Positions 17,361-59,552 of a stretch of DNA of 64,000 bases are shown here, one piece after another. The position numbers were made by a program, and so were the translations under genes. Location: NCBI GenBank assembly GCA_024911895.1, contig GCA_024911895.1_3948.1. One strand, 5' to 3'. Each line of letters begins with the position of its first letter. Positions within the stretch are counted from its first letter, which is position 1. Origin of the DNA: a phage. Below the pieces are notes generated by a model. It had not been told where the DNA came from and ran no database searches. It was given only the letters and a program-made list of their open reading frames with translations.

Positions 17361-17376
17361 ATTTTATCTCTCTCTC

Positions 17377-17868
17377 TTAGTTATGTCTTGCAAACTCACC
17401 ATGAAGTTCTATTCGCTTTTTAATTACAGCTTCTTTTGCTTCTTCTACCGTTTTAAATCTTCCACAAAAGTATTCTTTATGGTAAAGCATGACTCTTGCT
17501 TTGTAAAGACCTGTTTGTTTACAAAAACTTACACCCTTCACACCAGTTTTATTATTCTTGTATATACCCCTATTCCTCTGATTTTGTGACTTTGTGCTAA
17601 GTCTTAAATTCTCCAACTTATTATTAGGTTTATCAAGGTCTATGTGGTCTATCTCATATCCACTTGGTATCTCACCTCCAGACATAATCCATGCAATATT
17701 ATGTGCATAGTACCTCTTCTTATTTATCTGGACTTGGATATAACCCTTCTTAGACCTTGTGCCAGCCACATTACCAGCAATAGCGGTACTGCAAAGGGTT
17801 ACTCTCCAAATTAATAAACCTGTATCTGGCTCATATATTAGGTATCTTTCAAAATAACCCTTATTCAT
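17377..17868 (-). CDS. HNH homing endonuclease with C-terminal AP2 DNA-binding domain
   Basis: HNH region GYEIDHIDLDKPNNKLENLRL; AP2-like GVKGVSF...GRFKTVEEAKEAV...HGEFA; inserted between the Nampt-like and Prs-like genes. Confidence 0.7.
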   Translation of the reverse strand: MNKGYFERYLIYEPDTGLLIWRVTLCSTAIAGNVAGTRSKKGYIQVQINKKRYYAHNIAWIMSGGEIPSGYEIDHIDLDKPNNKLENLRLSTKSQNQRNRGIYKNNKTGVKGVSFCKQTGLYKARVMLYHKEYFCGRFKTVEEAKEAVIKKRIELHGEFARHN

Positions 17869-19556: not shown

Positions 19557-19607
19557 ATTATCTCCAAAATAAAAAGGGAACCTTTACAGTTCCCTTATAG
19601 TATCTGC

Positions 19608-19930: not shown

Positions 19931-20197
19931 TTATTTAGCCTTCTTATTACGTTTACGGTTACGAGCTTTCTTAGCTGCTCGTTTAATAGCTGCTGCACCA
20001 GACGGACGGTGGGCTTGTTTCTTACCACCTTTGCCACGGCCTACATAGATGTAAGGCTGCTGTTCAATTTGGCTTGTAAGAACCTGTGCAACCGCTGAAG
20101 CATCTACACCGACTTGCTTTCCAGTCATAGAAACAATTGCTGCTGCTTTTGCCAGTGCCTTCAAGAATCCAGCTTTCATATTACCTAAAATTCCCAT
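19931..20197 (-). CDS. hypothetical basic protein (88 aa) with Lys/Arg-rich C-terminus
   Basis: ATG at 20197, preceded on the minus strand by a (GA)12 tract. Confidence 0.5.
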   Translation of the reverse strand: MGILGNMKAGFLKALAKAAAIVSMTGKQVGVDASAVAQVLTSQIEQQPYIYVGRGKGGKKQAHRPSGAAAIKRAAKKARNRKRNKKAK

Positions 20198-20204
20198 TTT
20201 TTAG

Positions 20205-20228
20205 TCTCTCTCTCTCTCTCTCTCTCTC
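20205..20228 (-). repeat. (TC)12 on plus = (GA)12 on the minus strand, 8 nt upstream of the ATG of 19931..20197
   Basis: perfect 24-nt dinucleotide repeat read directly. Confidence 0.9.
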
Positions 20229-20310
20229 ATTAAAGTTTAATACAGAACTTATGAAGTTCTTCTTCAGTGATACCAATTGGAGTTATACCTTAGTCCATTT
20301 GCCAGAATAA

Positions 20311-20796
20311 TCACTCTGCTCTCCACTGACAATCACCTTGCCACCCATACTCTTTTCTCCAGAGGTTTTGGTTATCAGAACCACGATATGGTTTAACTGT
20401 TGGTTTAGATGAATCATACTTACCATCAATCACCACGTCAACATATTTCATCACATCAAGGTGAATTTTTTCATGTAACTGAAAACCTGTCCAGAGCCAG
20501 ATAGATTTTTCTGGGTAAACGGTTTTAATACGTTTGCATATGTTGGTAACCTCTTGAATGTTTCTATCATCCAGAGGTTCTCCACCAAGTATTGACAGCC
20601 CACTGATGGCATTATCATCCATTAACTTAATGATGCCATAAAGGTTTGCATAAGTGAACTCTTTACCAGCATTAAACTTCCAAGATTCCTTATTAAAGCA
20701 ACCTTCACAGTGATGCTTACAACCAGCTACGAAGAGGCTTACACGAACCCCTTCACCATTAGCTGTGTCAAATGGTCGAATCTCCATGTAATTCAT
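20311..20796 (-). CDS. nrdG: anaerobic ribonucleotide reductase activating protein (radical SAM)
   Basis: CKHHCEGC (CxxxCxxC) near the N-terminus; 161 aa; same operon orientation as nrdD. Confidence 0.7.
   Translation of the reverse strand: MNYMEIRPFDTANGEGVRVSLFVAGCKHHCEGCFNKESWKFNAGKEFTYANLYGIIKLMDDNAISGLSILGGEPLDDRNIQEVTNICKRIKTVYPEKSIWLWTGFQLHEKIHLDVMKYVDVVIDGKYDSSKPTVKPYRGSDNQNLWRKEYGWQGDCQWRAE

Positions 20797-54167: not shown

Positions 54168-59551
<5,384 letters not shown>

Positions 59552-59552
<1 letters not shown>

Follow-up and report, generated by a model that had tools for sequence, protein, structure and literature searches.

A conserved 88-aa gene in a Felixounavirus genome (a FelixO1-like myovirus, Ounavirinae) is preceded by a perfect (GA)12 dinucleotide tract. 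The window, as we call the whole 64-kb stretch of DNA analysed here, has its best GenBank match at 97.3% over 1.2 kb. On the minus strand, the order is nrdG, a 113-nt spacer that contains the tract, the 88-aa gene, a 106-aa DUF7390 gene and a terminator-like hairpin. The features of the locus, together with one related site elsewhere in the window, are as follows.

20311..20796, minus strand: nrdG (anaerobic ribonucleotide reductase activating protein), which precedes the 88-aa gene, probably in the same transcription unit
20283..20348, minus strand: 5' stub of a deleted phrog_5082 gene, 21 codons (MGGKVIVSGEQSDYSGKWTKV and stop), overlapping the nrdG 3' end
20244..20260, minus strand: hairpin AGAACTT-CAT-AAGTTCT with a 7-bp stem and 3-nt loop, its arms being the codons for EEL and KFC of the phrog_5082 relic
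20231..20243, minus strand: conserved GTATTAAACTTTA directly 5' of the tract, coding for the final residues C-I-K-L of the deleted phrog_5082 gene, whose stop TAA (20232..20230) runs one base past this stretch
20201..20230, minus strand: mini-ORF ATG AGA GAG AGA GAG AGA GAG AGA GAC TAA, whose upstream ATG overlaps the relic TAA
20205..20228, minus strand: perfect (GA)12 tract, the putative expanded AG-repeat ribosome-binding site (RBS) allele of the 88-aa gene; orthologous sites have n = 3-11
20198..20204, minus strand: spacer CTAAAAA, 7 nt, between tract and ATG
19931..20197, minus strand: 88-aa gene, phrog_4425 (E=1e-48), conserved in Felixounavirus, Mooglevirus and Suspvirus
19574..19596, minus strand: terminator-like hairpin and T-run after the 106-aa DUF7390 gene, from a terminator scan
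17367..17376, minus strand: second GA-type RBS, (GA)5, before a nadV-like gene; length-polymorphic among relatives

The main ATG at 20197..20195 (minus strand), which opens ORF 19931..20197, is invariant, as is the MGI(L/F) N-terminus that follows it. The N-terminus of the 88-aa protein is hydrophobic or amphipathic and its C-terminal tail very basic. Pfam, NCBIfam and PDB sequence searches returned no match to the protein, and phrog_4425 carries no function label. At the distal end of the gene group, annotated terminators in Meda, Moogle and Michonne lie at the place matching 19574..19596, and the hairpin and T-run there are likely to be the end of the transcription unit. The sole promoter candidate in the 113-nt spacer, TTGTCA-17-TATTCT (9/12), straddles the nrdG stop and was rejected, with 7 found versus 4.4 +/- 2.2 in shuffled sequences. 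Because the spacer holds no convincing promoter, the 88-aa gene is probably co-transcribed with nrdG.

Read on the minus strand, the site has the form ...TTAAACTTTAAT(GA)12CTAAAAAATGGGA, or, with more of its flanks, ...GAAGAAGAACTTCATAAGTTCTGTATTAAACTTTAAT(GA)12CTAAAAAATGGGAATT.... Direct reading places the (GA)12 run at exactly 20205..20228, as the first-pass annotation had it; the distance between tract and ATG, given there as 8 nt, is 7 nt (CTAAAAA, 20204..20198). The tract is the sole period-2 array that Tandem Repeats Finder detects in the window. Counts of the 10-mer GAGAGAGAGA illustrate how exceptional it is, with nine occurrences observed against 0.22 expected; eight of the nine fall inside the tract and the remaining one at 17367..17376.

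The length of the tract was compared across relatives in an allele survey made up of 29 Felixounavirus loci read directly and 74 full-length GenBank records scored by alignment span. For the latter, a 151-nt query was placed across the site and its span on each record reports n, a score that is indirect for about 60 records and was verified by direct reading for 13. Direct reads give n = 12 in the window, 11 in Salmonella phage P219, 8 in two IMG/VR contigs (L006 and L011), 7 in SPJ41, 6 in JLBYU32, 5 at seven loci and 4 at fifteen loci, including four metagenome loci, the only ones that a metagenome scan contributed. Two loci carry degenerate tracts, AAGAGAGAAT in L009 and GAGGGAGA in bumzen. 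Among the 74 records, spans of 148 (n = 11), 140 (n = 7) and 138 (n = 6) occur once each and a span of 136 (n = 5) five times; the remaining 66 or so have spans of 133, 134 or 135, corresponding to n = 4 with a 5-, 6- or 7-nt spacer. The modal allele is thus n = 4, found in about 85-90% of about 100 genomes. None has fewer than three units, the allele of the window is the longest seen, and n >= 7 occurs only in the window, in P219 and SPJ41, and in a single metagenomic phage.

The spacer, too, varies in length, through its A-run. CTAAA (HY02, NRG857CP1 and bumzen types), CTAAAA (modal) and CTAAAAA (the window and the BPS15S6 group, the latter at n = 4) set the distance between RBS and AUG at 5-7 nt, independently of n. 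In three Ounavirinae genera the site has a few GA units (n = 3-5), which end 5-7 nt ahead of the same start codon, and a GGAG-type core is absent: TAAT(GA)nCTAAAA-ATG in Felixounavirus, (A)GAGAGATATTAAA-ATG in Mooglevirus and AAGAGAGAGAGATTAAA-ATG in Suspvirus. On this distribution, a short GA run is the presumed ancestral state of the site.

The long alleles fall into three separate groups (the window; P219 and SPJ41; L006 and L011) that share 88-92% identity over 990 nt of flank. By flank, the nearest neighbours of the window are L013 with n = 5 (98.7%) and LF82P3 with n = 4 (98.5%). The closest long pair, P219 (n = 11) and SPJ41 (n = 7), differs by one substitution and a single 8-nt gap in the tract over 2,540 aligned nt, so that the tract shifts by several units on the time scale of a single substitution, as expected of replication slippage. 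The survey shows that at least three lineages gained long alleles independently and that length changes faster than point substitution. The first-pass annotation had anticipated slipped-strand changes and proposed a comparison of isolates; that comparison bears it out, with n = 3, 4, 5, 6, 7, 8, 11 and 12 all found and P219 and SPJ41 four units apart. Among duplicate or laboratory-evolved records, short alleles do not differ (LF82P3 twice, LF110P2 twice, NRG857CP1 twice, and VpaE1_ev78 with ev108).

The sequence between nrdG and the tract has a history of its own. Compared with the window, phiWec172, Meda, P219 and BPS15S6 contain 157 extra nt and an intact 91-aa gene, whose product in phiWec172 matches phrog_5082 with E=1e-36. 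The intact gene starts within the nrdG 3' end and its stop TAA lies directly before the GA run. In the window, about 60 nt of its 3' end are left in addition to the 5' stub, and the relics together span 20230-20348 (minus strand). A 157-nt deletion relative to these four phages separates two genome types within the genus. Since relatives hold an intact phrog_5082 gene at this place, the spacer is not a designed intergenic region. We also considered whether long alleles are linked to loss of phrog_5082, compensating for lost translational coupling, and set this aside: no clear link emerges, as both backgrounds contain short and long alleles.

The same relic accounts for the perfect hairpin at 20244..20260 to which the first-pass annotation drew attention. 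Its 7-bp stem is real, and as RNA it folds at -5.3 kcal/mol, with 9 of 200 shuffled sequences folding at least as well; the arms, however, are phrog_5082 codons, and the stem decays where the gene is missing, so that, on this evidence, the hairpin does not stand as an independent regulatory element. Intact copies of the gene, which occur in three genera, keep the arms but have different loops, as expected for a conserved peptide of the form ...EEELxxFCIKL followed by the stop. Genomes without the gene show one-sided stem disruptions in SeKF_63, JLBYU32, L015 and fjerdesal. No compensatory pair changes were seen among orthologous sites, where the arms are invariant as long as they code for EEL and (K/Q)FC. 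The terminator scan returned nothing at 20244..20260; 2 of the stem's pairs are G-C, and the sequence after it, GUAUUAAAC, is not a U-run. A role as terminator or regulatory RNA was rejected on these grounds, and because the arms are relic codons, lack a U-run and compensatory change, and decay without the gene, we do not treat the hairpin as functional.

The position of the tract suggests what it does. The (GA)12 run stops 7 nt before the ATG and the orthologous runs stop 5-7 nt before it, in each case with at least three repeats at the Shine-Dalgarno (SD) position. An SD core (GGAG, AGGA or GAGG) is absent within 25 nt upstream of the ATG of the 88-aa gene; the relative bumzen has mutated to GAGGGAGA. 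In E. coli, AG repeats can replace the SD sequence as RBS (PMC5389652; Evfratov et al., Nucleic Acids Res 2017), and by these two sequence criteria the phage tract would qualify as an AG-repeat RBS. The earlier suggestion of an extended purine-rich, SD-like element therefore stands as regards position: the tract occupies the RBS position, relatives have a shorter GA run at the same site, and there is no canonical SD. The added idea that its length tunes translation is plausible by analogy with E. coli. We propose, with a probability of about 0.7, that the tract is the AG-repeat RBS of the 88-aa gene, expanded from an ancestral and still modal (GA)4 to (GA)12 by replication slippage.

The published E. 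coli data give an idea of how strong such elements can be. In reporters, a synthetic (AG)6 leader yields an output five times that of a strong control; output falls 34-fold when the distal three repeats are destroyed and 3.6-fold when the proximal three are (PMC5389652). The natural leaders that ybaB, lon, rplY and lrp carry (GAGAGAGA-type) lose about ten-fold when AG is changed to AC (PMC5389652). The phage site resembles these: in both, the leader is unstructured and poor in C, and an AG or GA run stands in for the SD core 5-8 nt ahead of the AUG. In size and layout, the modal allele of the phage, TGAGAGAGACTAAAAATG, corresponds to the E. coli examples, ybaB (GAGAGAGAAACCUAUG), lon (GAGAGAGCUCUAUG), rplY and lrp, and the lon leader and the phage GA-type sites have TTAAACT and AAGAGAGAG in common. 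The systems differ in two respects. E. coli AG-repeat leaders are fixed runs of 3-3.5 repeats, whereas the phage tract is a microsatellite of up to 12 units in a virulent phage; and in the reporters of PMC5389652 the (AG)6 run adjoins the AUG in a synthetic context, whereas the added repeats of the phage lie 14-31 nt upstream.

Modelling of the contact with 16S rRNA suggests how AG repeats could act in this way. In a duplex model, GAGAGAG pairs with 16S 3'-UUCCUC-5' as GAG^GAG with one bulged A, at -5.6 kcal/mol when a 5' U is included versus about -2.9 kcal/mol for a lone GAG. About 3.5 repeats would suffice for this pairing, which would set the observed floor in repeat number. As the 3' end of the tract is anchored at the spacer, all alleles would hold the same productive proximal register, and extra repeats would add only upstream registers (standby or multiple-SD sites), 14-31 nt upstream in an unstructured leader. 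In the models the leader is unusually unstructured (z=+2.5 versus shuffled sequences) and the tract unpaired. Ensemble anti-SD binding in a thermodynamic model is -2.5 kcal/mol at n = 0, -4.4 at n = 4 and -6.0 at n = 12, so that going from four to twelve repeats shifts the total modelled affinity by only 1.6 kcal/mol. These calculations suggest that translation of the 88-aa protein would change in degree as the tract goes from 4 to 12 repeats, probably by a modest increase and not as an on/off switch. Since the added repeats lie 14-31 nt upstream, beyond the usual SD window, they may be neutral, stimulatory or inhibitory (as decoy sites).

The sequence directly 5' of the tract, GTATTAAACTTTA (20231..20243), is invariant or nearly so across genera and recalls a known translation enhancer. 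In the T7 gene 10 leader, a documented element under the name 'G10L RBS with epsilon enhancer' and whose sequence was verified, the 'epsilon' enhancer TTAACTTTA is followed by AAGAAGGAGA, the leader taking the form TTAACTTTAA / TTAACTTTAAGAAGGAGA. As in this leader, the phage sequence TTAAACTTTAA adjoins the 5' side of a purine-rich RBS, and it matches the T7 epsilon sequence UUAACUUUA, an enhancer complementary to 16S rRNA, with one inserted base. Unlike the T7 element, it also supplies a neighbouring gene with its last codons and stop, an overlap that can by itself account for its conservation, and the (GA)12 allele pushes it from about -27 to about -44. We regard the possible resemblance to T7 epsilon as a lead only.

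The tract is one of several GA-type sites in the genome. The first-pass remark that shorter GA-rich RBSs recur in the window agrees with a rough census of its putative starts, about 10 of 97 of which have a GAGAGA-type upstream sequence without a GGAG core, among them the prs-like and 369-aa genes. Two of these sites were followed through the relatives. At the nadV-like gene, n = 4 is modal, the window and TH10 have n = 5, SflM_004 has n = 6 and radambza GATA(GA)6, with spans of 149-157. The (GA)4 run of the prs-like gene is invariant among relatives, its span equalling that of the query in nearly all full-length matches. As the nadV site is polymorphic and the prs site is not, instability appears to be a property of GA-type RBSs above about four units and not a device of one gene.

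An alternative to an expansion of little consequence is that the tract is an adaptive tuning or contingency locus, in which slippage in the RBS generates subpopulations with differing amounts of the 88-aa protein and long alleles are selected. The high mutability of tract length fits this idea, as do the strong effect of repeat number on output in E. coli reporters (PMC5389652), the repeated gain of long alleles by independent lineages and the climb of modelled 30S affinity with n. The population pattern points the other way: n = 4 prevails in about 85-90% of about 100 genomes and long alleles are rare, scattered tip variants; tract purity is not maintained, as GAGGGAGA in bumzen and AAGAGAGAAT in L009 illustrate; and short alleles are unchanged in duplicate or laboratory-evolved records. 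The unrelated nadV RBS behaves alike, which suggests a property of the sequence and not of the gene, and an 88-aa protein without an assigned function permits no selective scenario to be stated. We consider selection of this kind unlikely. That long alleles are rare speaks against a switch that is maintained; local adaptive episodes would be compatible with it. A broader version, in which the microsatellite RBSs of the 88-aa gene and nadV form a reversible series of translation rates, a 'volume-control' form of contingency with (GA)11-12 as selected high-expression states, strikes us as distinctly improbable.

Comparison with established contingency loci leads in the same direction. SSR contingency loci, which vary by slipped-strand mispairing (reviewed in PMC4235727), include the CT repeats of Helicobacter pylori oipA (PMC10564699) and an (AG)12 tract in a Type III methyltransferase gene of Mycoplasma mycoides (PMC3498834). 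The phage tract is like these in being a perfect dinucleotide repeat that slips in length where this could influence expression, and the M. mycoides tract also has 12 units. Contingency tracts, however, lie in coding regions or between promoter elements, switch expression on and off, and are maintained as long tracts across strains. The phage tract lies in an RBS whose proximal geometry is unaffected by length, and its long alleles are rare: a hypermutable perfect repeat of 12 units is present, but a long tract is not maintained across strains.

Phages themselves offer a further comparison. The poly-G tracts of Campylobacter phages are runs of a single base within genes for receptor-binding proteins and exert their effect by frameshift. 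Their hypermutability was reportedly described by Sorensen et al. in Cell Reports in 2021. Those tracts and the GA tract have in common that a hypermutable simple repeat in a virulent phage is heterogeneous between close relatives; the GA tract differs in being a dinucleotide repeat and in lying in an untranslated leader. Taken together, a maintained contingency switch is not supported at the 88-aa gene. Within the reading of the tract as a slippage-expanded AG-repeat RBS, the long alleles are most plausibly transient, close to neutral by-products of a mutable sequence.

A role at the level of DNA is very improbable. A perfect mirror repeat of 24 bp is of a length compatible with triplex (H-DNA) formation, and the homopurine-homopyrimidine tract of the window is such a repeat; it might then serve as a replication or transcription pause site or as a recombination hotspot. 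The region is indeed a mosaic junction, with the phrog_5082 gene variably present immediately upstream, but the deletion junction lies about 60 nt from the tract and not at it. Most relatives, moreover, have only 8 bp of repeat, too short for H-DNA, which leaves no room for a conserved DNA-structural role.

Translation of the tract itself has still less in its favour, and we give it next to no weight. It would start from the ATG at 20230, which overlaps the relic stop (TA-ATG-AGAGAG), and produce either an Arg-Glu N-terminal extension or an n-dependent regulatory uORF; with n = 2 mod 3 and the modal spacer, this ATG shares the frame of the main ORF, and it serves as the start in several GenBank annotations. 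In the window, however, a TAA follows after nine codons, and the mini-ORF at 20201..20230 is probably not functional. Mooglevirus and Suspvirus (Moogle, Sf17, Michonne, SUSP2) lack the upstream ATG, as does L009, no RBS precedes it, and the main ATG and MGI(L/F) N-terminus are invariant. Because all residues of n mod 3 occur among the alleles, there is no reading-frame constraint on the tract. A uORF or N-terminal extension through the tract was rejected since the upstream ATG is not conserved and alleles occur in all frames.

The upstream ATG has nevertheless left its mark on annotation. GenBank coding sequences of the 88-aa gene are extended across the tract to this ATG in P219 (L017 1251-1547), fjerdesal (L022 1251-1535) and bumzen (L025 1251-1532), and in JLBYU32 (L005 1025-1357) to a TTG further upstream. 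As the open frame depends on repeat number, the annotated length of the 88-aa protein varies artificially between records.

Inflation of the tract by sequencing or assembly error is scarcely credible: dinucleotide repeats are prone to stutter and the window also has one extra A in the adjoining A-run, but stutter errors amount to about one unit and not eight, assemblies made independently in other laboratories show n = 7, n = 8 (in two contigs) and n = 11, sequencing reads are far longer than a 24-nt repeat, and the 7-nt spacer is also present in the BPS15S6 group.

In the literature, no earlier description was found of the site or of length-variable AG-repeat RBSs in phages, nor any work on Felixounavirus together with a dinucleotide repeat; general phage SSR surveys do not address the site. 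AG-repeat RBSs have so far been characterised by synthetic reporters and a few fixed E. coli leaders. The Felixounavirus site offers a natural allele series from n = 3 to n = 12 at one orthologous position, in part near-isogenic (P219 and SPJ41), on which the dose-response of translation to repeat number can be tested. The series also bears on the question whether slippage in an RBS could serve a lytic phage as a mutable dial for expression. In practical terms, the tract is a handy high-resolution marker that separates otherwise identical Felixounavirus isolates in phage therapy and biocontrol. If the extra repeats are neutral, the finding is a well-documented phage microsatellite.

Several further observations were made in the window and its database matches. 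Directly upstream of nadV lies an HNH homing-endonuclease gene (17377-17868), which only about 62 of 252 related records carry; in genomes without it, homology resumes exactly at the nadV GA run. Two of the matching records have unexpected labels: at the prs site, MG065664.1 (Campylobacter phage A132) matches over 151 nt with 100% identity, and across the GA site of the 88-aa gene GU169904.1 (Staphylococcus phage SA1) shows 84% identity, which suggests that these records are mislabelled or chimeric. Other repeats in the window are of different types. A cluster of short tandem and dispersed repeats with periods of 10-11 and 20 nt occupies 85-881 and might be an origin-like or regulatory repeat region, and a 742-aa ORF (57324-59552) contains, at 57803-57835, an imperfect CTG/12-nt repeat with 11 copies of period 3 and 76% matches.

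Between 1100 and 6800, about a dozen small ORFs on the minus strand share a near-identical leader of about 25 nt, (A/T)CCT(T)AAACT(A)GGAGATTC(A/T)AAAA-ATG. The ORFs with this leader start at 1350, 1911, 2844, 3133, 3641, 3999, 4183, 5497, 5844, 6313 and 6796 (minus strand). Its TAAACT motif occurs within 40 nt upstream of 94 starts 13 times against 1.8 expected, mostly at -18 to -20. The 25-nt leader looks like a repeated early-gene translation or transcription module.
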